Origin: a virus
Taxonomy: Duplodnaviria; Caudoviricetes
DNA length: 64,000 bases
IMG/VR virus record: IMGVR_UViG_3300026043_000014
Span: 6,588-70,587 of that record
Direction: 5' to 3' (one strand)
In this document: positions 2,573 through 62,940 of the stretch, in pieces
Layout of the letters: every line of letters begins with the position of its first letter
How positions within the stretch are numbered: position 1 is the first letter of the stretch
Translations under genes and position numbers: made by a program
Notes under the pieces: generated by a model
Database searches by the model: none
The model's input: the letters and a program-made list of their open reading frames with translations, nothing else
Told to the model about the DNA's origin: nothing

Positions 2573-4969
2573 TTGATCAAGGGTGGATCACGAAAAACAA
2601 CTCTGCCAGGATGGCGGACTCCGTGTAGAGAACCCCTTCACCCGGCGACCTTCGGAGCAACCTTGCGCGTCTCACTATTCCCGAGCCTCGAAGACCCACA
2701 CGTACGCCCCCTCGAGACCGACTGGGGCGGCATCGCAGAAGAATTAACTAGCAAGCGCATCGTCACCGACGACAAGAAGGCCGTACCGCTCTTCTCGCCG
2801 GCTGAGTTTCGCGAAGACTATCGGACGAAAAAGAACGTCGAGCGCGTACACTTCTTGGTGCTCGACTACGACGCGCTCGATCTAGCGGGCGCGATCGCGT
2901 CGATGGAACGGATCGCGTCGTACCGACGCATCCTCTATTCGACGCATCGACACGATCCGCGAGAGCCTAACGGCCAACGCTTCCGTGCGCTCGTCGCGAT
3001 CGATCGTCCGGTACTCGGCCGAGAATGGCCGTCATTCTGGAGTGCCGCGCGAGCGGATCTCGCTCCTCTCTCAGACAGGAAAGATTCCGACGCTTCGCGC
3101 GCGTACTTCTTGCCTTCGTGCCCGGCGGATAGAGCTGAATTCGCGTTCGCCGAATCGCACGACGGCGCTGTGATCGAGGTCTCTAGGTACATCGGCGCCG
3201 ACGTCCCAGAGGCCCCCACGGACGGCGTGTTCCCCGTGACGCCGGAGTACCTACGCAAGCTCGGCACGTCGCTCAGCAAACGAAAATCACTCGGCGATTC
3301 GCAAATAGGGGAAATCCTTCTTCTCGTCGCGCAGGGGCTCCCCTACGCGACCGAAGGCGAGCGAGACGACGTCACGTGGAGACTCTGCGTCCGGCTCGCC
3401 AAGGAAATCCCCGAGGCGAACGCGGAATCTCTCGGCGCCGTCTTCGCGGCGTCGTTGTCACTCATGGGCGCCGAAGCGCCGACGCCCGCGATGGTCGTCG
3501 AGAAGTTCTCCCGCGCTCGCACGCAGAACGCCGAAAGATCGCATGCCGCGGAAGACTGGCGCAAGGCGCGCATCCGTTCGATCTTTTTCGGTAGTCGTGA
3601 AGAGCCATACACCGACGCCGAGATCGCCACATGGGGCATTCGCTCAGACGAATGGCTTCTCACGTTCGAAAAAGAGCTCTTCGTTGCCTTCGATGGTTCG
3701 TACGTCGGGCCTCTCGTGCGCGCGCACGAAGAAGCGCTCCAGTGGCTTGCCCCAGCTCCGTTTTCGATCGTTCGACTCAGAGAAGACGGCACGATCGTCT
3801 ATCGCACACTCAAGGAAATGCTCGTGGAACAAGGAAAGCAGATCACCAAGCGCGTCGTGTGGATCGGCGGCCAAGGCAACACCCGTTACGATCGCGACAC
3901 CGACACGCTTCACACGTTCGCCTGCCCACTCAGATCACTCGAGCCCGCGTACGATGCGAACGTCGATGCCTTCCTCGCAGGGATCGCGCGGAGCTCGAAA
4001 AGCAAGCTCGAGACGTGGCTCGCTGCGTGCATCGATCCAGAGATTGCACTGCCCATGCTCTGGCTCATGGGCGATCCGGGCGTGGGCAAGTCGCTGCTCG
4101 CCGCCGGAGTCGCGCGTCTGTGGACCAAAGACGGCCCCGGCGACGCTCACGCGGCACTTGGCACAGAGTACCAGGACGCGCTCTTGCGTTGCCCTCTACT
4201 GCTCGCTGACGAACACCTGCCCCGAGACTTCCGGGGTCACGTCGTGACGGAGAAGATTCGATCGCTGCTCACGAGCCCGACGCACCACGTCAACAAGAAG
4301 TACGGCATGCAAGGGCGGGTTACTGGTATGGTGCGGCTCATCGCAGCGACGAATGCCGGCGCACTATCAGGGCTCTCACTGGCGCTGAAACCGGAAGATT
4401 TTTCGGCCATTGCCGAGAGGATCCTCATGATCCGCTGCAAGGGGTCGCCGCGCATTGCCTCGGATCTCGCGGCGTCGTTCGTGAAAGACGATCGCATTGC
4501 CCGACACGTGCTCTGGCTTGCGTCGAAGTACGCACGATCGACCACCGATCGCTTCGCGGTCACAGGCGACGCCGAAGACCTGGTCACCGAGCTTTTCGTT
4601 CAGAGCGAATGGCGCGCGGAGGTTCTGGAATGGATCTTTCTCGCGTTGGCAGATCCGCAGCGGCACTTCATGAAGTGGAAGTACCCGGCAATCGTCGCGA
4701 AAGACGGCGTTGTGTATATACGTCGTAAAGACATCGGGAAGTGTTGGTCCGACTACTACAACGACAAACTCGATGCTGCGCAGCAACGGAAGGCCGCCGC
4801 GGCGGCGCGCGATCTAATCAACGGTGGACGGATGAAGTTCAAAGGGAACAAATACACCTCGGTGGATCCAAAAATGCTCGAGGCGTATGCGAAAGCCTCC
4901 GAAGAGGAGGTTCCGAGCACGGAAATGTTGGAGATCGTTTGTAAAAATTCCCCCTACGGGGCGAATTGA
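2573..4969 (+). CDS. primase-polymerase (AEP-like) fused to a D5/VirE-like P-loop helicase; true start may be about 30 codons downstream
   Basis: LVLDYD (DxD) and YSTHRH motifs N-terminally; Walker A GDPGVGKS and Walker B LLLADE C-terminally. Confidence 0.85.
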   Translation: MIKGGSRKTTLPGWRTPCREPLHPATFGATLRVSLFPSLEDPHVRPLETDWGGIAEELTSKRIVTDDKKAVPLFSPAEFREDYRTKKNVERVHFLVLDYDALDLAGAIASMERIASYRRILYSTHRHDPREPNGQRFRALVAIDRPVLGREWPSFWSAARADLAPLSDRKDSDASRAYFLPSCPADRAEFAFAESHDGAVIEVSRYIGADVPEAPTDGVFPVTPEYLRKLGTSLSKRKSLGDSQIGEILLLVAQGLPYATEGERDDVTWRLCVRLAKEIPEANAESLGAVFAASLSLMGAEAPTPAMVVEKFSRARTQNAERSHAAEDWRKARIRSIFFGSREEPYTDAEIATWGIRSDEWLLTFEKELFVAFDGSYVGPLVRAHEEALQWLAPAPFSIVRLREDGTIVYRTLKEMLVEQGKQITKRVVWIGGQGNTRYDRDTDTLHTFACPLRSLEPAYDANVDAFLAGIARSSKSKLETWLAACIDPEIALPMLWLMGDPGVGKSLLAAGVARLWTKDGPGDAHAALGTEYQDALLRCPLLLADEHLPRDFRGHVVTEKIRSLLTSPTHHVNKKYGMQGRVTGMVRLIAATNAGALSGLSLALKPEDFSAIAERILMIRCKGSPRIASDLAASFVKDDRIARHVLWLASKYARSTTDRFAVTGDAEDLVTELFVQSEWRAEVLEWIFLALADPQRHFMKWKYPAIVAKDGVVYIRRKDIGKCWSDYYNDKLDAAQQRKAAAAARDLINGGRMKFKGNKYTSVDPKMLEAYAKASEEEVPSTEMLEIVCKNSPYGAN

Positions 4970-4984
4970 GCACCAGCCATCCGG

Positions 4985-5515
4985 TAGTCTAGAGGATAGT
5001 CTACACTTCAGACGCCTGAGGGACGTCAAGACCCGGAAATTCGCAAAAAGGGGCAAAAGGGACAAAACTCGTTTGCCCCAACGATTTCAAGTACTTGAAA
5101 AATCGACTGATCCAAATAGTGTAGCAGTTTCAAATACTTAGATGGGGGACAAAACTCTGGTTCCCTATTTCTCTTTAGTAACGGAAAGTATGTGTATGTA
5201 TACCTCTACCTCTATCTCTCTACTGCATGATCTACCAAACAACCTACTCTAGCCTCGCACGCGCCCGTATATACGTATAGATAGGTAGAGGTAGAGGTAT
5301 ACATACACATACTTTCCGTTACTAAAGAGAAATAGGGAACCAGAGTTTTGTCCCCCATCTAAGTGTTTGAAACTGTTACACTATTTGGATCAGTCGATTT
5401 TTCAAGTACTTGAAATCGTTGGGGCAAACGAGTTTTGTCCCTTTTGCCCCTTTTTGCGAATTTCCGGGTCTTGACGTCCCTCAGGCGTCTGAAGTATAGA
5501 CTACCCTCTAGACTA
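4985..5515. repeat. 531-bp AT-rich inverted repeat (230-bp arms, 71-bp loop); candidate origin or end junction
   Basis: 4985-5214 is the reverse complement of 5286-5515 with 4 mismatches (4996/5504, 5004/5496, 5124/5376, 5135/5365). Each arm has GGGACAAAACTC twice (5059, 5146) and the palindrome TTTCAAGTACTTGAAA (5085-5100). Confidence 0.97.
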
Positions 5516-5790
5516 TGGCAGCCAAGGAAAAACAGTTCAACCTGCGGTTATCGCAGGAAACTCACGATCGCTGGCGTCAGGCCGCCGAAGCATCCGGGTG
5601 CTCACTGACCCTGTGGATCGAACGCGCGTGCAATGCCGCGGCGTTCGTTGCGCTCGAGCAAGCGGCCGCCTCGCGCGCCGACCGGCTCGAGGGTGTTCGA
5701 GTTCTGCTCCACGAAGCACAGGCCCGGTTGGACGCCCTTTCGGCAGAACAGCCCGAGGATGCCCCGCAGTCGCACGAGGATGCGCTGTGA
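5515..5790 (+). CDS. ribbon-helix-helix (Arc/CopG-like) DNA-binding protein
   Basis: KQFNLRLSQETHDRWRQAAEASGCSLTLWIERA. Confidence 0.7.
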   Translation: MAAKEKQFNLRLSQETHDRWRQAAEASGCSLTLWIERACNAAAFVALEQAAASRADRLEGVRVLLHEAQARLDALSAEQPEDAPQSHEDAL

Positions 5791-5862: not shown

Positions 5863-5892
5863 ACAGCCGCGCGGGGCTTCGAATGCCGCGAC
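5863..5892 (+). CRISPR. orphan CRISPR repeat (3' 30 nt of the array repeat)
   Basis: ACAGCCGCGCGGGGCTTCGAATGCCGCGAC, 29/30 to the array consensus; 37 nt upstream of a GTG at 5930. Confidence 0.9.
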
Positions 5893-7341: not shown

Positions 7342-7979
7342 TCGATTGGTTTTTCATTTTCGTCGTTGTCGCGTTCGTAGCGATCGTTGCCTACAGCGCG
7401 GGGAGAGGCTCTGTTGCGCACATTAACTGTATCCAAATTTTGGCTGAGCAGCGTCGAAAGCTATGGATGCTTCTCGATCACATCGATACGCTCGACGACT
7501 CTTGCCGCGATGACGATTTGACTTTTCGTGCGCTTACACGAGTGTGCCAAAAGAAGCGTTTCGAAATTTGGGTGCCGGCTGACGACGCCGAAGTGAAGAC
7601 ACCCCAGCAGCGCGTAGCCGCATGGGTCGCCGAAGTTCTCGGCGCGGACGCGGCTCAGGACGGACCGGAACGCGTGCTCCGAACTGCCGAAGAGGTCGTC
7701 GAGCTCGCCCAAGCCGTCGGTCTTTCTTCGACGGTGCTTCATCGGCTCGTCGACTACGTCTACGCGCGCCCGGTCGGCGACGCCGCGCAAGAGATCGGCG
7801 GATCGCTCATCACGCTCTACTCGGCGGCGGAAGCGCTCGGCGTGGACGTCGAGACGCAGTTCGAAAAAGAGCTCGCGCGAGTTCGTCGACCGGAGGTCGT
7901 GGAGAGGGTTCGACGCCGGCAGCAAGAGAAACGAGAGGCGCTCGTGGGAGACGTAGGAGACGTGGGAGAAGAACGATGA
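7338..7979 (+). CDS. MazG-like NTP pyrophosphohydrolase domain protein with N-terminal TM helix
   Basis: ERVLRTAEEVVELAQAVG...YVYARPVGDAAQEIGG. Confidence 0.6.
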   Translation: MIDWFFIFVVVAFVAIVAYSAGRGSVAHINCIQILAEQRRKLWMLLDHIDTLDDSCRDDDLTFRALTRVCQKKRFEIWVPADDAEVKTPQQRVAAWVAEVLGADAAQDGPERVLRTAEEVVELAQAVGLSSTVLHRLVDYVYARPVGDAAQEIGGSLITLYSAAEALGVDVETQFEKELARVRRPEVVERVRRRQQEKREALVGDVGDVGEER

Positions 7980-9019: not shown

Positions 9020-9394
9020 ATGAAACGTGTCATCGTTGAAAGCCCGTTCGCGGGAGACCGGAGAAGAAACCGGCGTTACCTCGAGAGCTGCCTCCGCGAC
9101 TGCGTCCTTCGAGGCGAGAGCCCGTACGCTTCGCACAAGATGCTCACCGATTGCCTCGACGACGAGGTCCCCGAAGAGAGAAAGCTTGGCATGGGGGGCG
9201 GCTATACCTGGTGGGTCGTGGCTGACGACATCGTCTTCTACGTCGATCTCGGCTGGAGCGGCGGTATGCAGAAGGCGCGAGAGCTTCTCGAGGCCGAGGG
9301 GCGATCGTACCTGACGCGGACTTTGCCGGAGGACGATCTCTTCTGGCTCGAAGAGAAGAGGCTGGCGGAAGCGAAGGAGAAAGCAGGACGATGA
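9020..9394 (+). CDS. conserved phage protein (nucleoside deoxyribosyltransferase-like fold)
   Basis: VIVESPFAGD...RGESPYASH...VFYVDLGWSGGM. Confidence 0.6.
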   Translation: MKRVIVESPFAGDRRRNRRYLESCLRDCVLRGESPYASHKMLTDCLDDEVPEERKLGMGGGYTWWVVADDIVFYVDLGWSGGMQKARELLEAEGRSYLTRTLPEDDLFWLEEKRLAEAKEKAGR

Positions 9395-10206
9395 TCGAAT
9401 TTCCCGAGGGTTCGGAGCTCCGCCACGAACAGGACGGACTCTACAGCGTGCTCGATTTCGGCTACCTGAAGATCGTGGAGTCGTGGGGTGGCGACGAAGA
9501 GATCATCGAATCGGCGAGAATGTCGACGGACAAAGGCTTCCTCGGCTGGGATCCGGGGCCGTGTCCGACGTGCGACGGCGCGGGTTGCGCTGTCTGCGGC
9601 GGCAAGGGCACTCACGCGGGCGATGCGAAGCTGCTCCGGTACCTCTACGAGAACAAGCATTCGACCCCGTTCGAATTCGCCGGGCTCATCGTCGAGGTGC
9701 AGGCGCCGATCATGGTCTTCCGGGAGTGGCACCGGCATCGGACGCAGAGCTACTCCGAGATGAGCGCCCGCTACGTCCAGATGCCGAACTTGCACTACGT
9801 GCCGAGCGTCGCGCGCATCATCGCGTCGGCGCAGAAGAGCGGCAACAGGCAAGCTTCGGGTAGCGGAGTACTACAGACGTACGACGGCGACAATAGGAGC
9901 GAAGCAAGAATCGCGCTCGAGATCCAGCAACTCATCCGGAGCGAGCAGCAGCGCATCTACGCGCAGTACGAACAGCTCCTCTCGTTCGGCGTCGCGAAAG
10001 AGATCGCGCGGCTCGACACGCCCGTCTCGCGCTACTCTCGGATGCGCGCGACGGCGAATCTCAGGAATTGGCTCGCATTCCTCACGCTTCGGACGGCGCC
10101 CGGTGCACAGTTCGAAATCCGTCAGTACGCTTGGTGCGTGGCCGACGTGATCGCTGTGTCTTTCCCTCGGACGTACGCGCTGTTTTCAGAAGGGAGACAG
10201 ACATGA
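9391..10206 (+). CDS. thyX: FAD-dependent thymidylate synthase
   Basis: HSTPFE and the signature REWHRHRTQSYSEMSARY; NLRNWLAFL. Confidence 0.95.
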   Translation: MIEFPEGSELRHEQDGLYSVLDFGYLKIVESWGGDEEIIESARMSTDKGFLGWDPGPCPTCDGAGCAVCGGKGTHAGDAKLLRYLYENKHSTPFEFAGLIVEVQAPIMVFREWHRHRTQSYSEMSARYVQMPNLHYVPSVARIIASAQKSGNRQASGSGVLQTYDGDNRSEARIALEIQQLIRSEQQRIYAQYEQLLSFGVAKEIARLDTPVSRYSRMRATANLRNWLAFLTLRTAPGAQFEIRQYAWCVADVIAVSFPRTYALFSEGRQT

Positions 10207-12825: not shown

Positions 12826-14322
12826 TCACGGCAGAAACGCGATCGCAGACGGGGTGACCGGCACTCCAGCAAGCGCCGTCTGAATCGTCTGTGTGAACAG
12901 ATCTGAGAGGAATGTCGGCGTCGGGATCGTTGCGGGAGAGAGCGGCGGAGGCGGCGGGGGTCCCGCGGTGGCCGGCGCGACGAATTGGCCGAGCGGCGCC
13001 GATGACTGCGCATTCGTCGGAATGGTCGCGGCTGCCGGATCGACCAAGAACGCGGCGGTCGCCTTTTTCAGGACCGACGATCCGATGTTCCCTTTCGTGC
13101 CCTTGTTGCTGTTCACGCCGACGTTGTTCGTGCCGGTGAAGTTGTCGTCGATGCCGTCGTACGCCTCGGTAAGCGTGATCGCGGTCGGCGTGACGACGTC
13201 GACCGTGTAGAGCCGCTGCTGTGTCTCGAAGAGCGTGTTGAGCGTGAACTGCGATGCGAAGCGGATGACGTCGCCCTGGGCAAGCACGGCGCTCTGATCG
13301 ACCGAAGTCGTCACGCGCGAGGAGCCCGTCGAGACGAAGAAGTCCCCCGCAAGCTGAGGAAAGCTCGTGCCTTGCTGAGCGAGCGTCAGGTACGACGGAG
13401 GCAGGTACGCCAGGTGCCGCTCGATGAGCAGTTGTCCCGCGTCGGTGGCGGGGCTCCGGAAGAAGTCCGGCGTCGGTGGCGGCTCTCCCGGCAGAGGCGC
13501 GAGCGCGCTCGAGAGCTCGACCAACGTGAGCTCGCCGACGTTGTTCTCGAATGTACCGGCGGTGGCGACGACCATGCTGATGATTTCGGCGATGTCGACG
13601 CTGCCGGCGTCAAGCGTGACGGGTGCCGGTCTCTTTCCTGTGAGGTTCACTGTGACAGTGAAAGGCCCCCCGCCGACGGAATCGTCGTAGGTGAGCTCGA
13701 TCGTTCGTGCTCCTGCGCCGGCTGCAATCGCGGGCGTTGTCGCGGCGACCGCATCGGTGTCGAGCTCCGAGGTCGAGTAGATTGCTGCGAGTGTCACGGG
13801 CGCGGGATCTGTGAAGAACGCTCCGGTGTTCGCCGTCGTGCCGGTGTACGCAGCGGTGAGTGTGAGCTCGGTGTCGGTGAGAGCCATGATCTCGTAGAAG
13901 ACGCCCAACTGAGAGAGGAATTGGATCTGACTGCCCACGCCGAGCGTCTGAAGCTGTGATTGCGTCGTCGGCACGGCGGCAAGTCCGTTCTGCGGAAAGA
14001 AAGATCCGCCGAGCGTGATCGACTCGACCAACGGATACGGCGGCACCGGCGGCGTCGACGTGTTTGGGTGGCACGGGAACACCGGCGGCGCCTCGGGAGC
14101 GTTCACTGAATTGAGATTGAGCGTTAACGTGCGCGTTGCAACGCCCACGCCGGCCGCGGTCACGTCGGAATCGACGGTGAGCCCGAAAAGCTGCCCGAGC
14201 ACTGGATCGTTGGTCGGATTTCGGTAGAGTGGCACCGCTCCGAGCGCGGTGGCGGCTCCCGCAGCGTCGAGAATGCTTCCAGCGACGTCAACGGTCCACT
14301 CGAGCACGATTTGATCAGCCAT
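12826..14322 (-). CDS. Thr/Ala/Val-rich beta protein, putative virion spike or fibre
   Basis: 498 aa from MADQIVLEW; repeated TLTAAYTG/TLTEAYDG units; lies in the structural block. Confidence 0.6.
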   Translation of the reverse strand: MADQIVLEWTVDVAGSILDAAGAATALGAVPLYRNPTNDPVLGQLFGLTVDSDVTAAGVGVATRTLTLNLNSVNAPEAPPVFPCHPNTSTPPVPPYPLVESITLGGSFFPQNGLAAVPTTQSQLQTLGVGSQIQFLSQLGVFYEIMALTDTELTLTAAYTGTTANTGAFFTDPAPVTLAAIYSTSELDTDAVAATTPAIAAGAGARTIELTYDDSVGGGPFTVTVNLTGKRPAPVTLDAGSVDIAEIISMVVATAGTFENNVGELTLVELSSALAPLPGEPPPTPDFFRSPATDAGQLLIERHLAYLPPSYLTLAQQGTSFPQLAGDFFVSTGSSRVTTSVDQSAVLAQGDVIRFASQFTLNTLFETQQRLYTVDVVTPTAITLTEAYDGIDDNFTGTNNVGVNSNKGTKGNIGSSVLKKATAAFLVDPAAATIPTNAQSSAPLGQFVAPATAGPPPPPPLSPATIPTPTFLSDLFTQTIQTALAGVPVTPSAIAFLP

Positions 14323-14565
14323 GAGCCTGAGAGTACCAGGGACGGCGCTCTCGCGAGGTCTTGAAAGCCGCGACGGTGCCCGACTCCACAGACGCCGCAT
14401 ACGGACCCGTATGCGGGCCTCGTACGGACCGCCGAAAGCACCGTGGGTTGCGGAAAAGCCGGGCATTGCGAGGGAGTTGAAGGGGCGGCGTCCGACGGCG
14501 GCTGCGCGGGGGTCGATCGCCCTTGTTTCTTTGTCCGAGAAGGGGGTATTATTGGACACACTATC

Positions 14566-16296
14566 GTGAGTTCCGATGATACTGTAATTCTTTGCGAGGC
14601 GGAGGTCGTCGAGACCGGCACAGAGCTTGCCAAAGCGCCTTCCGCCGCGCTGGTGGCCGCTTTAGAGCGCGCCGACGAGTATCGACGCCACACGAAGGCA
14701 GAGGCCACGGAGGCGGCGTACGCGAGCGACTGGAGGCGTTTTCTGACCTGGGCGGCCTCGGCCGGTGCCGCCCCGCTCCCGGCGACGCCGGAGATCGTCA
14801 GCGCGCACCTGAGTTGGCTCGCGGAGGAGGGGTACAGCGTCGCGACGCTGGAACGCTTTTTGGCGGCCGGGAGCCACTTCCATCGCGCCGCCGGGTCCGA
14901 CTTTCCGCGTAACGCCTACGCGGTTTCGGAGACGTTGAAAGGCATTCGGCGACGGGTAGGCGTAAAGCGCACCAAAAAAGCGCCCCTGGGGCTCACGGCG
15001 CTCTCCGAAGCGTGCACACGCGTTCTTCGGGAGAGCGACGGCGCCGAGGCCCCCGAGCGACGGCTGGCTCTTCGAAACCGAGCCATGTTGACCGTCGGTT
15101 GGTTCTGCATGCTCAGGAGCGCCAATCTGGTTGCGATCCGCCGAGAGCACGTACGTTTGGTGCGCTTCGACGGAGACGGCTGGATCGACGACGAGGATCG
15201 ACCAACTGGATTGATCGTGCACCTACCTGAGAGCAAGACAGATCAGTTGAAAGAAGGGCGCGACGTCGCAGTACACGCCCAAGCGGATGAGACGGTGTGC
15301 CCGGTACGCGCGCTCAAAGACTATTTGAGCGCTGCGTCGATCGGTCCCGAAGATCGGATCTTTCCCGTGAGTGAGCGCACGGTGTCGCGCCTTATCAAAC
15401 GTCTGGCGGCGAACCCGGAGCACGGGCACAAATCGTTGAAAGAGATCGCGCGCTGCGATTCATGCGCTACGGCTGCGAAGCGATTTGCGAGTCACAGCCT
15501 TCGTCGAGGTGCGGCGACTGCGCAAGCTCAGAGAGGTATCTCGGAGCGCGAGATCATGCGGCAAGGGGGTTGGAAGAACGAGCGTGTGATGCGCGGTTAC
15601 ATCGAGCACGCGACGCTTTTTCAAAACAACCCGACAAAGGATCTCTCAGGCGTCGTTGAAGAAAGAGGACGAATGGTCGCAGGACATGAGCAAGCACTTG
15701 AAAATCACTTCGACAAAATCACGAAGAAGAATCCCGAGTGGGTGAATGTCGTGAGCGAGATCCGCACGAAACTTTTCGACGGCGCCTATCATCAATGGCT
15801 CGTAGACGCTTTCTTTCAGAAGTGGAGAGGAAATCCGTCGCTCGCAGAGGTGTATTGTTTCAGCCAGCTGTACTCTAGCTATTTGAAAGGTGAAATCGGA
15901 ATCTTTTCCGTAGGAACGTCGTCATGTCCGTTGCCGGACAAGAACAAGAGCGGCAATCAAGCCGTTCTCGACGGTCTCCCCGATCTGTTTGAAGCTCAGT
16001 TCTTCGGCGGAATTGGGGACAACGACGGGAAGTTCGAGTGGAAACGTCCAGTGAAAATCACACGCTGTTTCGCCAATGCGGACGGTACGCAACGCGAAGA
16101 ACCTTGGGAGTGTCCTCCGACTTGGCTTCCGTTGGAAGTCGGGTACACAGCTGTCAGCAAAACGTTCGAGCACGTGGTCTCAGAGTTCGGAGTTGCTCGG
16201 TGGCCTTACGACTACGAAATGATCATCGTGCTCGTTACACACCCTTCTCTCCGCGAACGGAGACGAGAAAAATTGCGTCAGATGGGGTTTGCATGA
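14566..16296 (+). CDS. Cre-like tyrosine recombinase/integrase with an approx. 200-aa C-terminal extra domain
   Basis: SAM-like N-domain (AYASDWRRF); catalytic R (MLRSANL), K (SKTDQ), HSLRRG, GGWK, VMRGY; likely start GTG at 14566. Confidence 0.92.
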   Translation: MSSDDTVILCEAEVVETGTELAKAPSAALVAALERADEYRRHTKAEATEAAYASDWRRFLTWAASAGAAPLPATPEIVSAHLSWLAEEGYSVATLERFLAAGSHFHRAAGSDFPRNAYAVSETLKGIRRRVGVKRTKKAPLGLTALSEACTRVLRESDGAEAPERRLALRNRAMLTVGWFCMLRSANLVAIRREHVRLVRFDGDGWIDDEDRPTGLIVHLPESKTDQLKEGRDVAVHAQADETVCPVRALKDYLSAASIGPEDRIFPVSERTVSRLIKRLAANPEHGHKSLKEIARCDSCATAAKRFASHSLRRGAATAQAQRGISEREIMRQGGWKNERVMRGYIEHATLFQNNPTKDLSGVVEERGRMVAGHEQALENHFDKITKKNPEWVNVVSEIRTKLFDGAYHQWLVDAFFQKWRGNPSLAEVYCFSQLYSSYLKGEIGIFSVGTSSCPLPDKNKSGNQAVLDGLPDLFEAQFFGGIGDNDGKFEWKRPVKITRCFANADGTQREEPWECPPTWLPLEVGYTAVSKTFEHVVSEFGVARWPYDYEMIIVLVTHPSLRERRREKLRQMGFA

Positions 16297-16720
16297 AGCT
16301 CCGACTCGTCGATGCTCTCCGAAATCCTCGGACGCTCGCCGCCGCGCTCAAGTCGCGTCCGGGCGCCGAGCTCGAGCATCTGTCTGGTGACACGTACCGG
16401 CGGAATTTCACGGGCGACGTCGCGCAGTGCGGATGCCGCTGGGAGCGCGTCGCCGGATTTGGGAACGTTCTGCGGCTGTGCCTGATCCACCAGGCCGCGA
16501 CCGACGCGGCCGTCGAACGCGAGAGGAGCCGAAAATGACGAGAGAGCGATCGATCTGTCGTAGGTGCCACAGGTTCCGCATCGTCGATGAGGTGCGCTAC
16601 TGCCCGAGCTGCGCCGATGAGATTGCGGAAATGAAGAAACCAAAGAGGCGCGCCGTCGAACAGGACCGCGAGCAGTCCCGCGACGGGGGAAATGCGGTCA
16701 CCGCTCGAAAAACGGACTAA
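16293..16720 (+). CDS. two small genes (16293-16538; 16535-16720 Zn-ribbon CxxC...CxxC)
   Basis: ATGA overlaps after the integrase. Confidence 0.6.
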
Positions 16721-16858
16721 ATGTGCGTACCCTCGAAGGAAGAGTGGGATCCGAGTGCCGCTACGAAGGCCGGCGGAGTCGAGAAAAGACCGCGATGCAA
16801 GGAAGTGCTCGCAAACCGCGATGCAAGATCGCGATATCGTTACGGGCTCAGGAGAGAG

Positions 16859-17594
16859 CCAGCAACAGCCGCGCGGGGCTCCGAATGCCGCGACCCCCGC
16901 ATACCGGGTCAGCGTGTACGGGTTGCCCCCCAGCAACAGCCGCGCGGGGCTCCGAATGCCGCGACATCGAGGTCGCGAAGTACATCGGCGCCGACGTCCC
17001 CCAGCAACAGCCGCGCGGGGCTCCGAATGCCGCGACGAGGACGACGACGGCGAGGGCGGCGAGGGCTGCGGGCCAGCAACAGCCGCGCGGGGCTCCGAAT
17101 GCCGCGACGCATGCGATCGGTCGCGGGCGAAAAAAATGTAATCGACCAGCAACAGCCGCGCGGGGCTCCGAATGCCGCGACCGCCGGATGGGGTGTCGCG
17201 TTCACCACGGGCACGACAGCCAGCAACAGCCGCGCGGGGCTCCGAATGCCGCGACGAGACGTCCCAAGCGATGCTTCAAGCCGAACTCGAGCCAGCAACA
17301 GCCGCGCGGGGCTCCGAATGCCGCGACGTACTCAGCACGGCTAGTACGTCATGCGGGGGCACACAGCCAGCAACAGCCGCGCGGGGCTCCGAATGCCGCG
17401 ACGATTCCGTCTTCTCTGCGTCGGACAGCCTCCGCATCCCCAGCAACAGCCGCGCGGGGCTTCGAATGCCGCGACCAGAAGAGGCCAGATCACGAGCCAG
17501 CAACAGCCGCGCGGGGCTCCGAATGCCGCGACGGCCGAAGGCCTGCGTCGATAGTCATCCAGCAACAGCCGCGCGGGGCTCCGAATGCCGCGAT
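16859..17594 (+). CRISPR. CRISPR array, 11 repeats and 10 spacers, type V-like repeat
   Basis: 36-bp CCAGCAACAGCCGCGCGGGGCTCCGAATGCCGCGAC at 16859, 16930, 17001, 17073, 17146, 17220, 17292, 17367, 17440, 17497, 17559. Spacers are 35, 35, 36, 37, 38, 36, 39, 37, 21, 26 nt. Last repeat ends GAT; a partial remnant ends at 17629. Confidence 0.98.
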
Positions 17595-17662
17595 GAGATG
17601 GGCGGACGCCGACTCCGCCATGCCGCGACCAGAAGTGACCATCGCGAAATCGGACCGTGACA

Positions 17663-19120
17663 TCAAGGATAGGGTCCGATCACAGCGGGAGACACGATCT
17701 GAGGACTCGATGTTTGCACGGACTTCTGTGCCGGTTTCGGCGCGGGGGTTCCCGGCGCTTTGCTGGTTCTGAGCGTGGGGGGTTTTCGGGGTGCGGGAAC
17801 GGCCGCGGGGGCTGTCCCCGTGCGCAGTGTCGGCGGTCGGCGAATGGCCGCGGGAGCTGTCCCCGTGCGCAGTGTCGGCGGTCGGCGAACGGCCACAGAG
17901 GTCAGCTCTTTTGCCGAGGGGAGCCAAGGGATGTTTTTCTTCTGCGATGCCAGTGCGAGATCGAACCCGGCTTGGGCTTGTGGCGACAGCTTGCTTCGCA
18001 AGATCGCGAGCGCTTGCGGGCTGATCCCTTCGTGTCCGAGAGCCCCCATTGCGAGCGCGTACCCTGGCGCCACATCTTTGGGAATTGCGGAGAACGCTTT
18101 CAGCACGTCGGGTTTGGAGACGACGGCCTTGATCCAATCGCCGGCAACACTTCGCAGCTGATCAGCCCCCATTTTCGCGAACCCCTGCACCAGAGCTTGT
18201 TGAATGTTCTGCCCGGATGCGACGGCAAGCCCGATATCGAACGCTTTTCGTGCCAAACCTTCAGGCACGAGGTTACGTGCGCTCTCGAGTGCGGCTTTTC
18301 CTACGTTCTCTCCTTTTGCCACTTTCATTGCGGCATCGAATCCGGCTGCGGCTATCGGCCCCCCAGGCAAAGCACTGCGAACAGCCGCCTTCGCAGCTTC
18401 GTCGATCCCTTTGCCTTCGGCGAGAGCAACGCCCGCACCGATTGCAGCGGAAACACCGCTACCTACTCCGGGAACCATCGACACTACGGCTTGCGCGTAG
18501 GGAGCGGCTTCTTTCGCGATGCGAACTTGATCTTTGATGGACTTTAGCAGCGCTCTGTCAAGCCTGGCGCCTGAAGCGATGTCCTTCGCTAACTTGAGCG
18601 GGCCCGTAGCCGCTTCTCCGACAATGCGTGTCACGTCACCGAGGACGGGAATACTCCCGGCTACGTCGGCAATCGCGTTCGCTGCATCGATCGGTGCTTT
18701 GATAATGTGTCCGGCGATTTTCAACCCCTGGCCAGCAATCTCCAGAGGGTTGTAGGTTGTGTGCTGTGTGCGCCAGAAAGGAGGGTGAGCGAGCGCATTG
18801 TTGCGATCTCGCTGGCGCTGCGGGTAGTTCGGATCCTTCCAGAAAGGGTGATCCCAATCATAGAGAATGCCGACATAGGCAGGAGTCTTCGTGCTGTCGG
18901 TGCCTGTTACGGGAGTGAGCCCGTAGGACGGATCACGCCCGTAACCTTTCATCCACATCGACGCCGCGAACGCACGACGAGCTACTGTGCGAGGTTTTTC
19001 GGCGTCGTGGATTGCAGAGGACAACCATCTCGGGATGGTCTTTCGCATAGTCGCAGGGACTTTGTTGCGATCGAACCCCACACCGATTGAAGTGAGTTGT
19101 TCGCCCAGAAAGACCGTCAT
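17663..19120 (-). CDS. Ala/Gly-rich putative virion or membrane protein with three C-terminal R(R/K)PPTLRT repeats
   Basis: Amphipathic Gly/Ala core; tandem repeats at about 17780-17890. Confidence 0.65.
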   Translation of the reverse strand: MTVFLGEQLTSIGVGFDRNKVPATMRKTIPRWLSSAIHDAEKPRTVARRAFAASMWMKGYGRDPSYGLTPVTGTDSTKTPAYVGILYDWDHPFWKDPNYPQRQRDRNNALAHPPFWRTQHTTYNPLEIAGQGLKIAGHIIKAPIDAANAIADVAGSIPVLGDVTRIVGEAATGPLKLAKDIASGARLDRALLKSIKDQVRIAKEAAPYAQAVVSMVPGVGSGVSAAIGAGVALAEGKGIDEAAKAAVRSALPGGPIAAAGFDAAMKVAKGENVGKAALESARNLVPEGLARKAFDIGLAVASGQNIQQALVQGFAKMGADQLRSVAGDWIKAVVSKPDVLKAFSAIPKDVAPGYALAMGALGHEGISPQALAILRSKLSPQAQAGFDLALASQKKNIPWLPSAKELTSVAVRRPPTLRTGTAPAAIRRPPTLRTGTAPAAVPAPRKPPTLRTSKAPGTPAPKPAQKSVQTSSPQIVSPAVIGPYP

Positions 19121-22633: not shown

Positions 22634-23287
22634 TCACAAAGTGTGCGCCAGCAAAAACAAGCTAACGAAGTCCAGACTTGCGGTGTCGATTACGTTTGAA
22701 ATCGTTACTTGCAATTGATCTCCGTTGGCTAGCGGCGAAATGGCCGAAGACATCGCTTCGACGGGAGCGCCGTTTGCGGATTCGATCGAAATCGTAGAAC
22801 CCGCTATCTGGGTACCGTTTAGAGCGATGCCGATACGGCATGTCCTACCGAGAGCAGGGTTCGTCGGTGTCATCGACAGTCCGGCGGAAAGTGCGAAATT
22901 TCCTGGATCAGCGCCGTCGTACTGGAGGACGCCTGCACTCGGGGAGCTGAAGTCGACGGCGGTGGCTCCGAGAGCCCCGGTCGTGATCAACACGGGCGTT
23001 CCGGCAGCGGCTATTGGAACGGTGACGTTGGCTCCGTCGTAGAAGAGCCAACCCCCTTGAGGGGCAGCTGGCGTTGGTATGGGCGACCAAACAGGCGCGC
23101 CTCCCGCCATGGTGAGGACGGTGCCGTCTGCGCCGAGAACCAGGCCGACGGTGACGATGGGACCTGCTCCGTCGACGATGAAAATTCCCGGGTCAGCGAT
23201 GACTTGTTCGATCGCACCGCCGGCCGCCGTTTTCGGAGTTGGGTAGACTTCTCGGGCGTATCTACCTCTGCCTAGGATGTAGGTCAT
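22634..23287 (-). CDS. putative spike/fibre protein (GRGR-ExYP N-terminal family)
   Basis: MTYILGRGRYAREVYP; C1q/TNF-like beta C-terminus. Confidence 0.6.
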   Translation of the reverse strand: MTYILGRGRYAREVYPTPKTAAGGAIEQVIADPGIFIVDGAGPIVTVGLVLGADGTVLTMAGGAPVWSPIPTPAAPQGGWLFYDGANVTVPIAAAGTPVLITTGALGATAVDFSSPSAGVLQYDGADPGNFALSAGLSMTPTNPALGRTCRIGIALNGTQIAGSTISIESANGAPVEAMSSAISPLANGDQLQVTISNVIDTASLDFVSLFLLAHTL

Positions 23288-23302
23288 TCGTTTGTCCTTC
23301 TT

Positions 23303-24319
23303 TTACGGGTCATTCACCACAGGCAAAGGGATCTGATTGGTCACATTGCTTTCTTGGTAGCAGCGAACGATATCCGGTATATTGCCTTTCCAGTGGATGG
23401 ATCCGTAACCAGATCCATTGAAAGCGCTAGAACAACCATCAAGTATAGTAGAACGACAACCGTATATACGATAAGCGACTCCCGGATTACCCCCCGGCAC
23501 TACTCTAGCGGCACGTACATCCGTATTTGAGCAGTTATCGAGATAGAGTGAATCTGCTGTGTTGGCGGGTAAGAAGTACACTCCCCACATACGAACTTCC
23601 GCGGTTCCGCGACACCGTATTTGCGCTGTTCCGTTGAGTGAGAGCTGTCGTGTATTGGCAATAACCATGGCGGCAGCACTGACAGTCGGATCGAAAATCT
23701 GACCGAAGATGTCGATTCCCGGACCACCATTGCTATTGGCCGCAATGGCCGTCAGCACAGATCCGTTAGAACCTCCGATTTCTATACCCGCACTGCCGTT
23801 GCTAGAAGCACGGCAAGATTGGATGATAGCATCGTTGCATTGTCGTACGGCGATACCTCTATTGGTGCCACTGTGAGCCCAGATGTGTTCAAGGTAGAGA
23901 TCGTTTACACTTGTGGCGTTGATGCAGTCATCGGCTACACCCCCACCATCGAACTCGATACCTATAGCGCTGAATCTGGCGCCCGAAGCTGCTGTAAGCA
24001 ACGCTCCTGCACCGCCAGTAGCAATAATTTTAGAGTTCTGTACGGTCGTACCTGTGAAGTCACCGAAGACGGAGATACCTTGTCCGGCTGCAACGGTCAG
24101 TACTCCGGCTTGAATCGCATAGTTACCCTTCGGAACGTACAAGAGACCCTGCGCATCAGATGCGGCAAAAGCGTTGACGAACGCATTCGTATCATCGGTT
24201 ACACCGTTGCCAGTGGCCCCGAATTGGCGCACGTTGAGCAGACCGTCGAATACGGTAGGGAGTTGCCGGATCGCGTAGCTCTCTCGTGCGAAACGGCCTC
24301 TGCCGATGATATGAACCAT
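23303..24319 (-). CDS. pectate-lyase-like right-handed beta-helix protein (putative depolymerase), lower GC
   Basis: NVRQFGATGNGVTDDTNAF motif and Asn-rich parallel beta-helix repeats; starts MVHIIGRGRFARESY. Confidence 0.85.
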   Translation of the reverse strand: MVHIIGRGRFARESYAIRQLPTVFDGLLNVRQFGATGNGVTDDTNAFVNAFAASDAQGLLYVPKGNYAIQAGVLTVAAGQGISVFGDFTGTTVQNSKIIATGGAGALLTAASGARFSAIGIEFDGGGVADDCINATSVNDLYLEHIWAHSGTNRGIAVRQCNDAIIQSCRASSNGSAGIEIGGSNGSVLTAIAANSNGGPGIDIFGQIFDPTVSAAAMVIANTRQLSLNGTAQIRCRGTAEVRMWGVYFLPANTADSLYLDNCSNTDVRAARVVPGGNPGVAYRIYGCRSTILDGCSSAFNGSGYGSIHWKGNIPDIVRCYQESNVTNQIPLPVVNDP

Positions 24320-24550
24320 GGCGATTCCCCTAGAACCGCAGCAAGGTTCAGTTCCGGTTGACGTTCACGGGCCGGAGGCTGACGGCCTGATCGCGCGGTC
24401 TCGAAGCGTTGCTCCATCCGGAGTATTCGCTGTCGTAGCGGTGCGCGGCGTCGACCGTCAGTGCGGCCGTGTGTTCTCGGTAGAGCGCTTCGTCGAGGAG
24501 CTGCCGGGGGGCGCCGTTCTCCGAATGGCCGCTCTTGTTCTTCAGGTTTT

Positions 24551-24838
24551 TCAGCTTTCGTCGCATGGATCGGCCTCCTTCGGGTCGCCCAATAAGTGTA
24601 TCAGCACGGCGTCGACCGCGAGAGAGGAAACACTTGTCGCGCCACTGAGAAAAACGGCGTCTAAAACGGCCCCATGGCCCAATGGCAAGAGACCGGCGCC
24701 GCCTGCTGCCGCGCCGATCCACGTACCGGTGCACTGCGCGCAGCCGAGAAGCGCTGGCCACAGGCGACGTACGGGCCCGAAGATCGTCCCCCGTACGATG
24801 ATGAGGGTGATCCCGACGAGCCCGATGAGCTCGAGCAT
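24551..24838 (-). CDS. DUF1360-like small membrane protein
   Basis: TM helices and LLGCAQCTGTW motif. Confidence 0.55.
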   Translation of the reverse strand: MLELIGLVGITLIIVRGTIFGPVRRLWPALLGCAQCTGTWIGAAAGGAGLLPLGHGAVLDAVFLSGATSVSSLAVDAVLIHLLGDPKEADPCDES

Positions 24839-24841
24839 GAG

Positions 24842-25375
24842 CTACGGGAGCTCGTAGATGGAGGCGATCAGACCGGCGCAAGTGATCTGTGTCGGTCCTG
24901 CGGTGACTTCAGTGATCCAGATCGTGCCGGCACCCGCGGGAAGTGGAGTGCTGTTGACTCCTGTCAGCACTACGGTCCTTCCCAGTTCGCCAGCGGATAC
25001 CTGAAATAGACTCAGCCCCAAGACGGTCAAAGCGGCGCCCGGAACTACGAGAGGGGTCCCGTCGTCGATGAGCCAATCCTCGTAGGCAGTACCGCCTCCG
25101 GTAGTGCCCGCTGCGCCGAGCGCTTCGAAACCGACTTGCGCGTCCGCACCCGCGAGCGTGATCGGAATCATCAGATTCAGCTGGAAGAACCCGCTTGCGC
25201 GACGGGTGAAGTTGACAGCTGCGATCGGATAAGGTGCTGCCGGCGATTGGACCGCTGGCACGCCTGTTTGGTCGCCGACGAGGAAACGGTTCGTGAGCGC
25301 CGCCACCGCCCCTGTGGGATTGCCTCGGGGGTAGGTTTCTCCGAGGGTGCCTCTTCTTCCGGTGATGCGCATCAC
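24842..25375 (-). CDS. putative virion beta protein (GRGR-ExYP family variant)
   Basis: MMRITGRRGTLGETYP. Confidence 0.6.
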   Translation of the reverse strand: MMRITGRRGTLGETYPRGNPTGAVAALTNRFLVGDQTGVPAVQSPAAPYPIAAVNFTRRASGFFQLNLMIPITLAGADAQVGFEALGAAGTTGGGTAYEDWLIDDGTPLVVPGAALTVLGLSLFQVSAGELGRTVVLTGVNSTPLPAGAGTIWITEVTAGPTQITCAGLIASIYELP

Positions 25376-25568
25376 TCCATCCTTTCCGATAGCAGCTCGA
25401 CCAAACGGTCGGCTGTCCGAGGTTTCAATTTGATCGTGCCCACGGATCCTTCCTGGGGATCATCATCACTGATCTCCACGGAGCCGTCCTCGAAGATGCG
25501 GATCTTCGGGCACCGCTTGTATCCGCAGCACATGGTCTCTTCATGGATCAGCTTCATGACGGCTCCTT

Positions 25569-26207
25569 TCAGCCCGTGGCCTCGATCACTTCGTGCACTT
25601 CGACGACGCTGGCATTGCCGTCGAGTGCCGTGGTCGTGATGCCCGCGGCGGCTGTCAGTACGATGGCAATTCCCTCAGTGATACCGATGGAAAGACCCGT
25701 GATTTCTGCCACGAACGTGACGAGATTGTCGTCAACGTTCAACGTCGCGACAGGCGAGTTCACAGGAAAAACCGTGCCGCTCTGAAGGATGCCGATCGCT
25801 ACCGTTTGTTCTGTGGCTTCGCCGTTGTCGATGGAGAGCGATCCCGTGACGACCACGACACCCGAGCTGCGAGGCGTGATCGGAATCGCGGTGTTCTGTG
25901 CCCAGAACGCCGTGGGCCCCGCGCCTTCCAGCGGGGGGGAGTTGTTGAGGTTCCCCGCCTGAAGTGAGATCCATGTCGTGCCGTCGAAAGACACGATGTC
26001 ATTGATCCCGTACGTGACCGTGGCATCCCAGGCGTCCACGCTTTCGATGAAGCCCCAAGGGATCTGGGTTCCGGCGTCGGATATAGGAACGGTGACTTTT
26101 TCCGCTTGCGCGAAGTTTCGCGCGAGACTTAGTACACCTGCTCCGCCGCGCTGCGCTTCCGGGTAGGAGTGCTGCGCACGTGTACGTCCGATTCGAAACT
26201 CACCCAT
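25569..26207 (-). CDS. putative virion protein with a CBM5/12-like carbohydrate-binding insert
   Basis: MGEFRIGRTRAQHSYP; AWDATVTYGINDIVSFDGTTW...NSPP...FW. Confidence 0.7.
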   Translation of the reverse strand: MGEFRIGRTRAQHSYPEAQRGGAGVLSLARNFAQAEKVTVPISDAGTQIPWGFIESVDAWDATVTYGINDIVSFDGTTWISLQAGNLNNSPPLEGAGPTAFWAQNTAIPITPRSSGVVVVTGSLSIDNGEATEQTVAIGILQSGTVFPVNSPVATLNVDDNLVTFVAEITGLSIGITEGIAIVLTAAAGITTTALDGNASVVEVHEVIEATG

Positions 26208-43113: not shown

Positions 43114-43301
43114 GTCGCAGCATTCGAAGCCCCACGCGGCTGTTATGGAAATCGTCCGCCGGTCGCGGCTGTCGTGGAAATCCATCCGTGACTTCTTCTT
43201 GTCGCGGCGTTCGGAGCCCCGCGCGGCTGTTGAGCGGTGCTCACGTGACTCAACCGGCTCGCGGCGTCGCGGCATTCGCAGCCCCGCGCGGCTCACGGAC
43301 A
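43114..43301 (-). CRISPR. degenerate mini-array: three repeats (43266-43301, 43201-43236, 43114-43149)
   Basis: Cores match the main repeat with 1-3 substitutions; gaps of 29 and 51 nt; the 51-nt gap holds a collapsed repeat remnant (ACAGCCGCGAC). Confidence 0.85.
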
Positions 43302-45865: not shown

Positions 45866-45893
45866 GTCGCGGCGTTCGAAGCCCCGCGCGGCT
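45866..45893 (-). CRISPR. orphan repeat core fused to the cas12 stop codon
   Basis: TAG-CCGCGCGGGGCTTCGAACGCCGCGAC, 26/28 to consensus; followed by 37 nt, then the ATG at 45828. Confidence 0.88.
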
Positions 45894-47685
45894 ATGCGAC
45901 CTTCCTCTTCTTCGCGCGATCGAGGATCACCTGGCGCGCGCCGTAGTCCTTGTCTCGGGCGCGTCCGCACTTCGGACAGACGACGATGAGCTCCGGTCCG
46001 TTCACTTCGAGAAGGCCGTCGCAATTCTTTTCCGGGCACTCTCGCGTCGAATTGTGTGCCGAGACCTCGACGACGGTGCCGAAACGCTTGCAGATAGACA
46101 CGAACTCGTACCGGGCCGTGAGATCGCGATTGGCCCTCTGCCGGCGCTTGCGCTCCTCTTTGATCTGCACCTGCTGGATCTGCTTCACGTTCTCCGCCTC
46201 GAACGCGAAGGTCGAGTAGCGTTGACGAAGCTCTCGGACGACCCCGATGTAGAGCTCCTTTCGGAGGTTCTGGAACCGCTTCCGTCGCTGTTCGACACGT
46301 CGTTCGTAGCGCATCTCCCAGCGGAGCCACGCGGTCTCCTCCTCGGTCTTCACGCCGCTGCGCATGAGCATCCGTCGGTAACCCCAACGATTCATCTTGT
46401 GCGGCAGCTTGAGCGCTGCTTTTCGTCGATCGAACATCTCGTCCATGCGACCCTTCAGTTCATCGATCTCGTCGAGCGCCTTGCGGCAGGCATTCGGGAT
46501 CAGGACTTCGCCGACCTGACCGTCGTCCCCGATCCATGCGAACGCACGGATCCCCTCGCGCCATCGATCGTGGCCGTGCTCACGGTGGCCCCAATCGAAC
46601 GCAACCGTTCCTCCGGACTTCGTCGGGACGAAATTCTTGCTCTTCGATTTCTCGATGTCGAAAGTAAGGCTCAGGCTGTACGACCAGCGCTCACCGTCGA
46701 TGCGCCGCGTGAGCTTCGCAGTCGTCGGCTTTTTCCCCTCAGGGATTTCGTGCCAGTTGTTGCACTCGGCCTTGAGTCGCACCCATTCGTCCTCGAGCCC
46801 GATGCGCAGCTCGATCGTCCACCACGGGGACGTGCGCTTGACGAGATTGATGGCAGCCCCGGGAGGTAGCTTGTGCCCCTGGAGCTTCTCCGAGGGGAAG
46901 CAGTCGACCACACGGTCGTCAACGCGGACCTCGGCAGCGGACCACGGCTCGCCACGACTGAGGATGCGAATGCCGACGGGATCCATCGCGAGAGACGTCG
47001 GATGGCGGAACTTCGGCCGGCGGATCTCCGCGGGCATCCCTTTCGCACGAAGCGATATCACGTCCCGACGGGCCTGATCGACGCTCTTGCAGAGCGCGTT
47101 CCACGTGCCCCAATAGATCCGCCTCTCGGGGGAGTTGTAGAGCTCCGTTCGATACTTCTCGCGACGAGACCGCCGTGGCGCCTTCGCGACCTTCGCCGCG
47201 TAGTGCTCGTCGGATTCGTCAGTCGTCAAAAGCGTGAACCTCTTCTCCCACGCCTCGTCCGTTTCACCTTTGCGGCGCTTCACTTTCGCCGCCGGCTTCG
47301 CGCGACGTCGGCGAACGGCCTTCGGTTCACCGACTTCTTCGTCGGCCCACTTGAGAGCCTCCTTCCAGCGGGGATCAGCGTTGCGGATCTTCCGGGCTTC
47401 TTCGAGCCGAATCTTGAGCTTCGCGGCGAGCTCCGGCTTGGGATCGGGGGCCCAGCGACCTTCTGGGGTGTGTTCGACCCTTTTCACTCGGCGCGCGAGT
47501 TGCGCAAGGATGCGCCCCGTGCGCACGATCCCCGGCGCGATCTCGTCAGCGGCCGCGTCGAGGATCTTTTGGTGCTCGGCTTCGAAGTCGAGGAGCCGAT
47601 GGTAGATCCATCGTGCGTTTCGGTATTCCTCGCCGAGACGATCTTCGTCTGAGAGGATCCTGGCCGGTCTGCTGAGTGTGATCAT
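45892..47685 (-). CDS. cas12m: compact type V CRISPR effector, Cas12m (V-M/V-U1)-like
   Basis: IYWGTWNAL...RAKGMPAEIRRPKF resembles Cas12m as I recall it (LYWASFN...RASGKPATLRHHRF). RuvC-I TVAFDWGHR, RuvC-II FAFEAEN, Zn finger and RuvC-III CPKCGRARDKDYGA; Arg/Lys-rich insertion; adjacent repeat. Confidence 0.8.
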   Translation of the reverse strand: MITLSRPARILSDEDRLGEEYRNARWIYHRLLDFEAEHQKILDAAADEIAPGIVRTGRILAQLARRVKRVEHTPEGRWAPDPKPELAAKLKIRLEEARKIRNADPRWKEALKWADEEVGEPKAVRRRRAKPAAKVKRRKGETDEAWEKRFTLLTTDESDEHYAAKVAKAPRRSRREKYRTELYNSPERRIYWGTWNALCKSVDQARRDVISLRAKGMPAEIRRPKFRHPTSLAMDPVGIRILSRGEPWSAAEVRVDDRVVDCFPSEKLQGHKLPPGAAINLVKRTSPWWTIELRIGLEDEWVRLKAECNNWHEIPEGKKPTTAKLTRRIDGERWSYSLSLTFDIEKSKSKNFVPTKSGGTVAFDWGHREHGHDRWREGIRAFAWIGDDGQVGEVLIPNACRKALDEIDELKGRMDEMFDRRKAALKLPHKMNRWGYRRMLMRSGVKTEEETAWLRWEMRYERRVEQRRKRFQNLRKELYIGVVRELRQRYSTFAFEAENVKQIQQVQIKEERKRRQRANRDLTARYEFVSICKRFGTVVEVSAHNSTRECPEKNCDGLLEVNGPELIVVCPKCGRARDKDYGARQVILDRAKKRKVA

Positions 47686-62884: not shown

Positions 62885-62940
62885 GTTGCGGCATTCGGTG
62901 CTCCGTCACGGCATTCGAAGCCCCGCGCGGCTGTTGTGCA
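62885..62940 (-). CRISPR. orphan repeat (62905-62940) plus an abutting half-repeat (62885-62904)
   Basis: CAACAGCCGCGCGGGGCTTCGAATGCCGTGAC directly after the TAA of 62941..63207, then GGAGCACCGAATGCCGCAAC (17/20 to the repeat 3' end). Confidence 0.85.

Follow-up and report, generated by a model that had tools for sequence, protein, structure and literature searches.

A phage CRISPR spacer that nearly matches the phage's own primase-helicase gene, and its possible use by a Cas12m-family effector against close kin

The stretch of viral DNA analyzed here (the window, 64,000 nt) is bases 6588-70587 of the 70,587-bp IMG/VR virus record IMGVR_UViG_3300026043_000014, a complete virus genome (127-bp direct terminal repeat, completeness estimate 100%), and it carries a clustered regularly interspaced short palindromic repeat (CRISPR) array, a gene for a Cas12m-family effector and a gene for a primase-helicase. 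The second spacer of the array differs from a site inside the phage's own primase-helicase gene at only three of 35 positions. We give a probability of roughly 0.55 to the reading that the phage uses its own Cas12m protein and spacer 2 to silence relatives that have the ancestral allele of this gene, the carrier itself being spared by the three substitutions. The features concerned are as follows:

2573..4969, + strand: primase-helicase gene (longest open reading frame 798 amino acids (aa); public calls begin at 2663, which gives 768 aa)
3173..3207, + strand: mismatched protospacer, primase-helicase codons 171-182 of the 768-aa call, with TCT AGG where the spacer has GCG AAG
16859..17594, + strand: CRISPR array, 11 repeats of 36 nt and 10 spacers, oriented for transcription from left to right, the distal repeat degenerate
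16966..17000, + strand: spacer 2, second from the leader-proximal end, which keeps the GCG AAG allele
45892..47685, - strand: cas12m-family effector gene (597 aa), 28 kb from the array

The match between spacer 2 and the primase-helicase gene

The match had been reported in an initial annotation of the window, and direct comparison and shuffling bear out each part of that report: spacer 2 and the site are identical at 32/35 positions with both on the + strand, the only differences fall at guide positions 10, 12 and 14 (window positions 3182, 3184 and 3186), and the two are read in the same frame (spacer 2 IEVAKYIGADVP versus gene IEVSRYIGADVP). The 5' flank of the site is GTG (context ..GCGCTGTG). 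The spacer 2 pattern at ≤3 mismatches has 2 matches in the window where 0.00 are expected from 100 dinucleotide-preserving shuffles, and it is the only one of the 10 spacers to match its own genome when ≤25% mismatches are allowed on both strands of the whole 70.6 kb. Identical array and gene sequences are present in independent assemblies (JGI 3300014314, 3300014256 and 3300026040 and two Logan runs), and one JGI assembly differs from this genome by a single base across 21.5 kb; the match is therefore not an assembly error. With no match in any of the 100 shuffles and agreement among independent assemblies, we reject chance resemblance or artefact as its origin, the probability of either being next to nil.

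The product of the gene matches the PHROG DNA primase and DNA helicase families (E 1e-8 to 1e-9), its DUF5906 match falls just below the Pfam cut-off, and used as a profile it gives a weak PDB match to a chain named Primase. The site residues, 171-182, form the end of a conserved block, after which comes a variable linker. Only one relative above 30% identity was found among 5.8 billion protein clusters, a 774-aa protein that is 65% identical and is encoded on a 48.9-kb Logan contig (run ERR13373958); it serves below as the outgroup.

The spacer and the gene thus carry two alleles of one short sequence, and which of them is the older? At the site the outgroup reads GTC GCG AAG TAC, as does the spacer, and the resident gene reads GTC TCT AGG TAC. 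By parsimony from this single outgroup, the spacer most likely keeps the ancestral allele and the resident allele is derived. The three differences lie within a 5-nt span (P = 190/6545 = 0.029 for three randomly positioned mismatches in 35), and the other 32 positions are identical, including every synonymous site beyond the two codons. For Ser and Arg the gene seldom uses TCT and AGG (2/50 and 3/63, respectively), which rank among its rarest codons for these residues, and GCG and AAG are its commonest Ala and Lys codons. The change from Ala to Ser could have been made by GCG to TCG alone, TCG being the preferred Ser codon, so that going on to TCT, a synonymous change, brings nothing but another mismatch, at guide position 12. 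The clustering, the rare codons and the extra TCT step fit a recent change driven by lost pairing and not by drift; with three substitutions in a state that looks derived, the carrier's orthologous site appears to have been mutated so as not to be targeted. Templated conversion from within the genome was considered as a source of TCT AGG and rejected, since the derived motif has no second genomic copy.

The array, its orientation and the position of the flanking motif

Eight of the spacers are 35-39 nt long and are followed by two short distal ones (21 and 26 nt). Zero or one substitution is found in 10/11 of the array repeats, those upstream of spacer 2 are intact, and the array is identical across all samples, with no turnover visible. 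An alignment of 54 distinct repeat units, taken from four phages, shows an H-type pseudoknot (columns 9-12 pair with 19-22, and columns 14-18 with 30-34) in which 98.8% of the cells are paired and 7/9 pairs have changes on both sides, values that were matched in 0/500 shuffles and by no slid register; its G-U pairs make sense on this strand alone. Minimum-free-energy folding of the repeat was uninformative, pseudoknots being outside its reach, and Rfam found no family anywhere in the window. The Cas12m2 scaffold is likewise 36 nt long; its 5' heptamer is disordered, and two nucleotides separate the end of its pseudoknot from the guide (PMC10442227). Precisely the first seven repeat positions are unconserved in the solitary repeat units described below. 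The repeat has the features expected for subtype V-M, namely a 36-nt pseudoknot scaffold, a dispensable 5' end and a guide 3' of the repeat.

In the related phage loci L017 and L018 the arrays start ~40 nt past the cas12m stop codon on the same strand, with repeats oriented as on the + strand here. From this and the covarying pseudoknot we conclude that the CRISPR RNA (crRNA) is repeat then spacer on the + strand. The side on which a type V effector reads its protospacer adjacent motif (PAM) is therefore 5' of 3173, where the sequence is GTG, and the guide, being in the same sense as the primase mRNA, would pair with the template strand of the DNA.

Three minor features adjoin the array. The motif ACCGCGATGCAAG is present twice in the stretch ahead of the first repeat (16780-16835). 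After the last repeat, 17595-17641 contains a truncated repeat end and then a sequence 91% identical to the junction of repeat and spacer 9 (17466-17487), which suggests that part of this decaying array end was duplicated. Just downstream are three tandem 45-nt G+C-rich units (17774-17908).

The effector

The initial annotation had assumed a type V system, correctly, as the effector is a Cas12m-family protein by the following comparisons. It matches the PADLOC Cas12u1 model (E 6e-28) over 73-532 of 533 model positions; Cas12u1 is a PADLOC model name, and the former V-U1 group is now Cas12m (PMC11013384). Its top PDB match is a chain named UnCas12m4a, and when a profile of its clade (15 members) was compared with PDB, five Cas12m entries ranked first (2.6e-23 to 1.7e-11) and matches elsewhere were far weaker (TnpB-like 2.8e-10, Cas12f 3e-3). 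The protein retains conserved RuvC-like D364, E496 and D578/D580 (a D-E-D triad) and a CxxC..CxxC zinc finger with four conserved cysteines (C550, C555, C570 and C573); the Pfam Cas12f1-like TNB model matches it at 2e-4, under its cut-off. Since the whole-length similarity is better than that to other TnpB/Cas12 groups, sequence comparison places it in the Cas12m family (type V-M). The Pfam Cas1 and Cas2 models found nothing in the complete genome.

More than 100 homologues have 40-61% identity to the effector, almost all of them metagenomic, and the five neighbourhoods that were read look like phages or prophages, one of them on a Polyangiaceae genome-bin contig. The effector belongs to a new Cas12m clade that is apparently phage-associated. 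The Cas12m proteins tested so far, D-E-D variants included, bind DNA without cutting it, and they interfere only when they target essential genes or origins (PMC11013384); a primase-helicase target would fit an effector that needs an essential gene.

Expected effect of the mismatches and of the flank

Cas12m2 forms a 17-bp heteroduplex (PMC10442227), GoCas12m reads 18 bp (PMC11013384) and PmCas12m works best with a 17-nt guide (bioRxiv 10.64898/2026.03.26.714355). With a guide of ~17 nt, as these proteins would predict, all three mismatches lie inside the guide and the resident site is paired at 14/17 positions. The activity of PmCas12m is abolished by a single mismatch within 12 nt of the PAM, or by a double one within 14 nt (bioRxiv 10.64898/2026.03.26.714355). 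By analogy with the published Cas12m data, mismatches at positions 10, 12 and 14 should be enough to spare self, as had been supposed (bioRxiv 10.64898/2026.03.26.714355, PMC10442227). Shuffled 17-mers find 0.33 genome sites each at ≥14/17, and spacer 2 has another 14/17 site near 48826; a 14/17 match is at chance level, so the resident site should be no better than background for the effector. The identity over positions 18-35 probably records ancestry, without a role in binding.

The companion idea in the initial annotation, that a non-PAM flank helps to spare self, is not supported. Over the 12 nt upstream of the site the resident gene does not differ from the 65%-identical outgroup; the flank therefore cannot tell self from kin, and GTG most likely flanked the site in the source of the spacer as well.

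Repeat units outside the array and related phage loci

Cores of the same repeat are found outside the array as four solitary units and a degenerate three-unit mini-array:

5864-5892, + strand: repeat core
43114-43142, 43201-43229 and 43266-43294, - strand: repeat cores
45866..45894, - strand: solitary repeat core that starts at the cas12m stop codon, in the orientation of the gene
62905-62933, - strand: repeat core
L009 3779-3807, - strand: repeat core

The conserved part of these units is the 29-nt pseudoknot and not the first 7 nt, and the 20 nt that follow each of them have no second match in the genome. The minus-strand copies are in the sense orientation of the local genes (no dedicated anti-repeat search was made). 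These units may serve as fixed guides or as sites at which Cas12m processes mRNAs.

A degenerate pattern of the repeat had no match in bacteria (185,579 species genomes), and in IMG/VR the repeat pattern found only one phage, G001 (109,321 bp). That related phage has ~33 repeat units directly after cas12m (23064-25596; 3057-5596 of locus L036), which differ among themselves, within one array, by compensatory changes in both pseudoknot stems. Its spacers are 17-58 nt long and have no near-match in its own genome. In three loci of another phage group (L019, L020 and L021) one repeat unit (7709-7737, + strand) follows the cas12m homologue, with no array within 6 kb, a layout reminiscent of TnpB and its omega RNA, perhaps an intermediate stage between TnpB and CRISPR systems.

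How spacer 2 might exclude kin

Silencing of kin by spacer 2 would proceed as follows: The array would be transcribed on the + strand, and the phage's own Cas12m would cut the transcript into crRNAs that consist of the ~29-33 nt repeat pseudoknot and roughly the first 17-20 nt of a spacer. The complex would bind matching double-stranded DNA, pair with the template strand of the gene and stay there as a roadblock to transcription or replication. When kin with GCG AAG enter a cell or lysogen that holds this phage, their essential replication gene would be silenced, and the resident copy, paired at too few guide positions, would escape with the flank having no role in the distinction between self and kin. 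An extension of this scheme, which we offer only tentatively, is that the pair acts as poison and antidote: the spacer would have been taken from the lineage's own gene, the gene would have been driven to the resistant allele, and kin with the old allele would be silenced in mixed infections. If true, such a pair would spread at the expense of its ancestors and split the lineage, and it would amount to a CRISPR-based incompatibility system of a bacterial virus, with DNA binding as its only mode of action.

Search for a perfect target

Perfect protospacers for spacer 2 were sought with its degenerate nucleotide pattern in IMG/VR, with two codon-degenerate patterns, of which one took the conserved upstream peptide as its anchor (JGI metagenomes and IMG/VR) and the other represented the spacer peptide (IMG/VR and GTDB species genomes), among primase relatives found in IMG/VR by protein and among short primase fragments in the 5.8 billion protein clusters, and none was found by any of these routes. 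Three metagenome matches of the upstream-peptide pattern were rejected as members of an unrelated protein family. The other spacers fared no better: low-complexity chance matches were all that the whole array gave in GenBank phages and PLSDB plasmids, IMG/VR had no match for the first 20 nt of spacer 1 or spacer 7, and there were no matches between the spacers of this phage and the 109-kb phage G001 or between the spacers of G001 and L017 and this genome.

These results bear on the proposal of the initial annotation that the spacer came from a close relative's gene. What stands is that GCG AAG is an allele of this lineage, present also in the only outgroup, which has the two discriminating codons and shares only those; what the searches did not yield is the expected relative itself, as no perfect or near-perfect protospacer was found in a closely related virus and the sibling is hypothetical.

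Weighing the explanations

Several points weigh against exclusion of kin. No 35/35 protospacer exists in IMG/VR, the JGI metagenomes, the GTDB species genomes or the 5.8 billion protein clusters, as far as these searches reach (they may miss records very close to this genome), and the known copies of the phage are all nearly identical and all have the resident allele. The other nine spacers have no identifiable target, so that the theme of targeting relatives is that of one spacer. The polarity of the alleles is read from one rather distant outgroup. A sigma-70-like promoter was not detected in 16200-17900, in a scan that says little for such a host, and expression of the array is presumed; binding without cleavage by this D-E-D effector is assumed from tested Cas12m proteins to which it is only distantly related. 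The main weakness is the flank. Characterized Cas12m PAMs are T-rich or C-rich (PMC11013384), and GTG, which is conserved in the outgroup, is not among them; if the effector requires a YTN-type PAM, kin with GTG would be left unbound and the spacer would be a relic.

This leads to the main rival, which we regard as unlikely: the spacer once came from the lineage's primase gene, in its own genome or in an identical one co-infecting the cell, the gene escaped by mutation, and the spacer is now without target or function. The ancestral look of the spacer allele and the derived resident site with its rare codons are as this history would have them, as are the lack of a perfect target in any collection searched, the sameness of the array in all samples without sign of turnover, and a flank that is not a reported Cas12m PAM. 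A history of escape is, however, compatible with present function against kin of the ancestral type; indeed a relic and an agent of kin exclusion share their history and differ only in whether the target still exists. Absence from databases is weak evidence in a phage family with one known relative, and spacer 2 lies near the leader end with all upstream repeats intact. (The weights given to the rival explanations are rough and were not normalized to sum to one.) It is less probable still that the whole array is out of use for DNA targeting, that Cas12m mainly processes the phage's own mRNAs at the dispersed repeats, and that the array has been moved away from the gene and is decaying as a remnant. 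Its distance of 28 kb from cas12m, where relatives have the array directly after the gene, would agree with this, as would the shortened distal spacers, the truncated repeat behind the array and the solitary repeats co-directional with local genes at six other places. Decay would not be expected to leave 10/11 repeats with at most one substitution and eight full-length spacers, however, and it leaves unexplained why the only spacer with a recognizable source matches an essential gene of the lineage.

The initial annotation had also raised the alternative that a binding-only effector tunes the phage's own replication gene, the partly matching crRNA letting Cas12m bind weakly to the primase-helicase gene, for example in lysogeny. 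We find this very unlikely, mostly in view of the mismatch positions: 10, 12 and 14 lie where PmCas12m tolerates none (bioRxiv 10.64898/2026.03.26.714355), and the complementarity of the 17-nt guide is at chance level. Cas12m proteins do bind without cutting (PMC11013384), repeat units inside the phage's own operons allow for housekeeping roles of the effector, and partially matching cr-like RNAs regulate cas genes in other systems (bioRxiv 10.1101/2023.03.03.530964), but the known regulatory cr-like RNAs keep a PAM-proximal match and a valid PAM, where this site has GTG. In addition, a crRNA with the sense of the mRNA cannot pair with that mRNA, and an apparently derived target argues for pairing that was lost, not maintained.

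Relation to known systems

The closest precedent for exclusion of kin is that of the portogloboviruses SPV1 and SPV2 of Saccharolobus: the mini-array of each has spacers against the other, and each is altered by point mutations or deletions at its own orthologous loci (Medvedeva et al. 2019, PMC6858448). The precedent is exact in its logic, a virus-borne spacer against very close kin with a mutated locus in the carrier, for which heterotypic superinfection exclusion was proposed (PMC6858448), and the idea of sibling-targeting virus-borne spacers has thus not been new since 2019. Those viruses are archaeal, have 1-2 spacers with host-type repeats, depend on host Cas proteins, and both partners have been observed (PMC6858448); here a bacterial virus has its own effector and a 10-spacer array, and the targeted partner is hypothetical.

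The phage system resembles subtype V-M of bacteria, plasmids and prophages in its effector of ~600 aa with best matches to Cas12m structures, its 36-nt pseudoknot repeat and its lack of an adaptation module (PMC11013384, PMC10442227, PMC11656645), and also in that a spacer is directed against an essential replication gene, as a binding-only effector requires. It is unlike characterized V-M systems in that the similarity is distant (profile E 1e-11 to 1e-23) and the array does not adjoin the gene. Phage and prophage V-M systems have already been noted (PMC11656645). Judged by its description only, MvCas12m of myxophage MV-1 is similar: the phage encodes a Cas12m that retains a D-E-D triad, its array is about as large, and cas1, cas2 and cas4 are absent (bioRxiv 10.64898/2026.09.14.751636). 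The MV-1 protein has 610 aa, its array is adjacent and none of its spacers has a protospacer (bioRxiv 10.64898/2026.09.14.751636), in contrast to the present array, in which one spacer has its source in the phage's own lineage.

With the primase-helicase site, a Cas12m array carried by a phage would for the first time have an identifiable target, since the sole published phage example found none, and the site points to competition among closest kin, not to defence against unrelated elements. Huge phages are said, as in the 2020 reports of Al-Shayeb and of Pausch, to carry Cas-phi (Cas12j) or other compact type V effectors and arrays without adaptation genes, with spacers thought to hit competing phages. 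Cas-phi and the other huge-phage effectors cut DNA, and to our knowledge those reports were not about a near-self spacer whose resident site is mutated. The two alleles form a natural target pair, three bases apart inside the guide window, with which mismatch tolerance, PAM need and silencing could be tested directly.

Other genes

Just upstream of the array lies an integrase gene, which is given for context:

14566..16296, + strand: tyrosine integrase

It suggests a temperate lifestyle. The 577-aa open reading frame beside it (12826-14559) was considered as a candidate effector and rejected, as it has no Cas features. The 425-aa protein encoded at 56976-58253 (- strand) matches the helicase C-terminal part of DpdE, ZorD and DrmD (PADLOC, E 1e-13 to 4e-17), defence-system proteins; its gene is probably not a defence gene but one for an SNF2-type helicase of the phage. 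A gene for ThyX, a flavin adenine dinucleotide (FAD)-dependent thymidylate synthase, is at 9391-10206 on the + strand (TIGR02170, 2.7e-38), and Thy1 (PF02511) genes are present also in the 65%-related phage (L012) and next to the cas12m homologue in L018.

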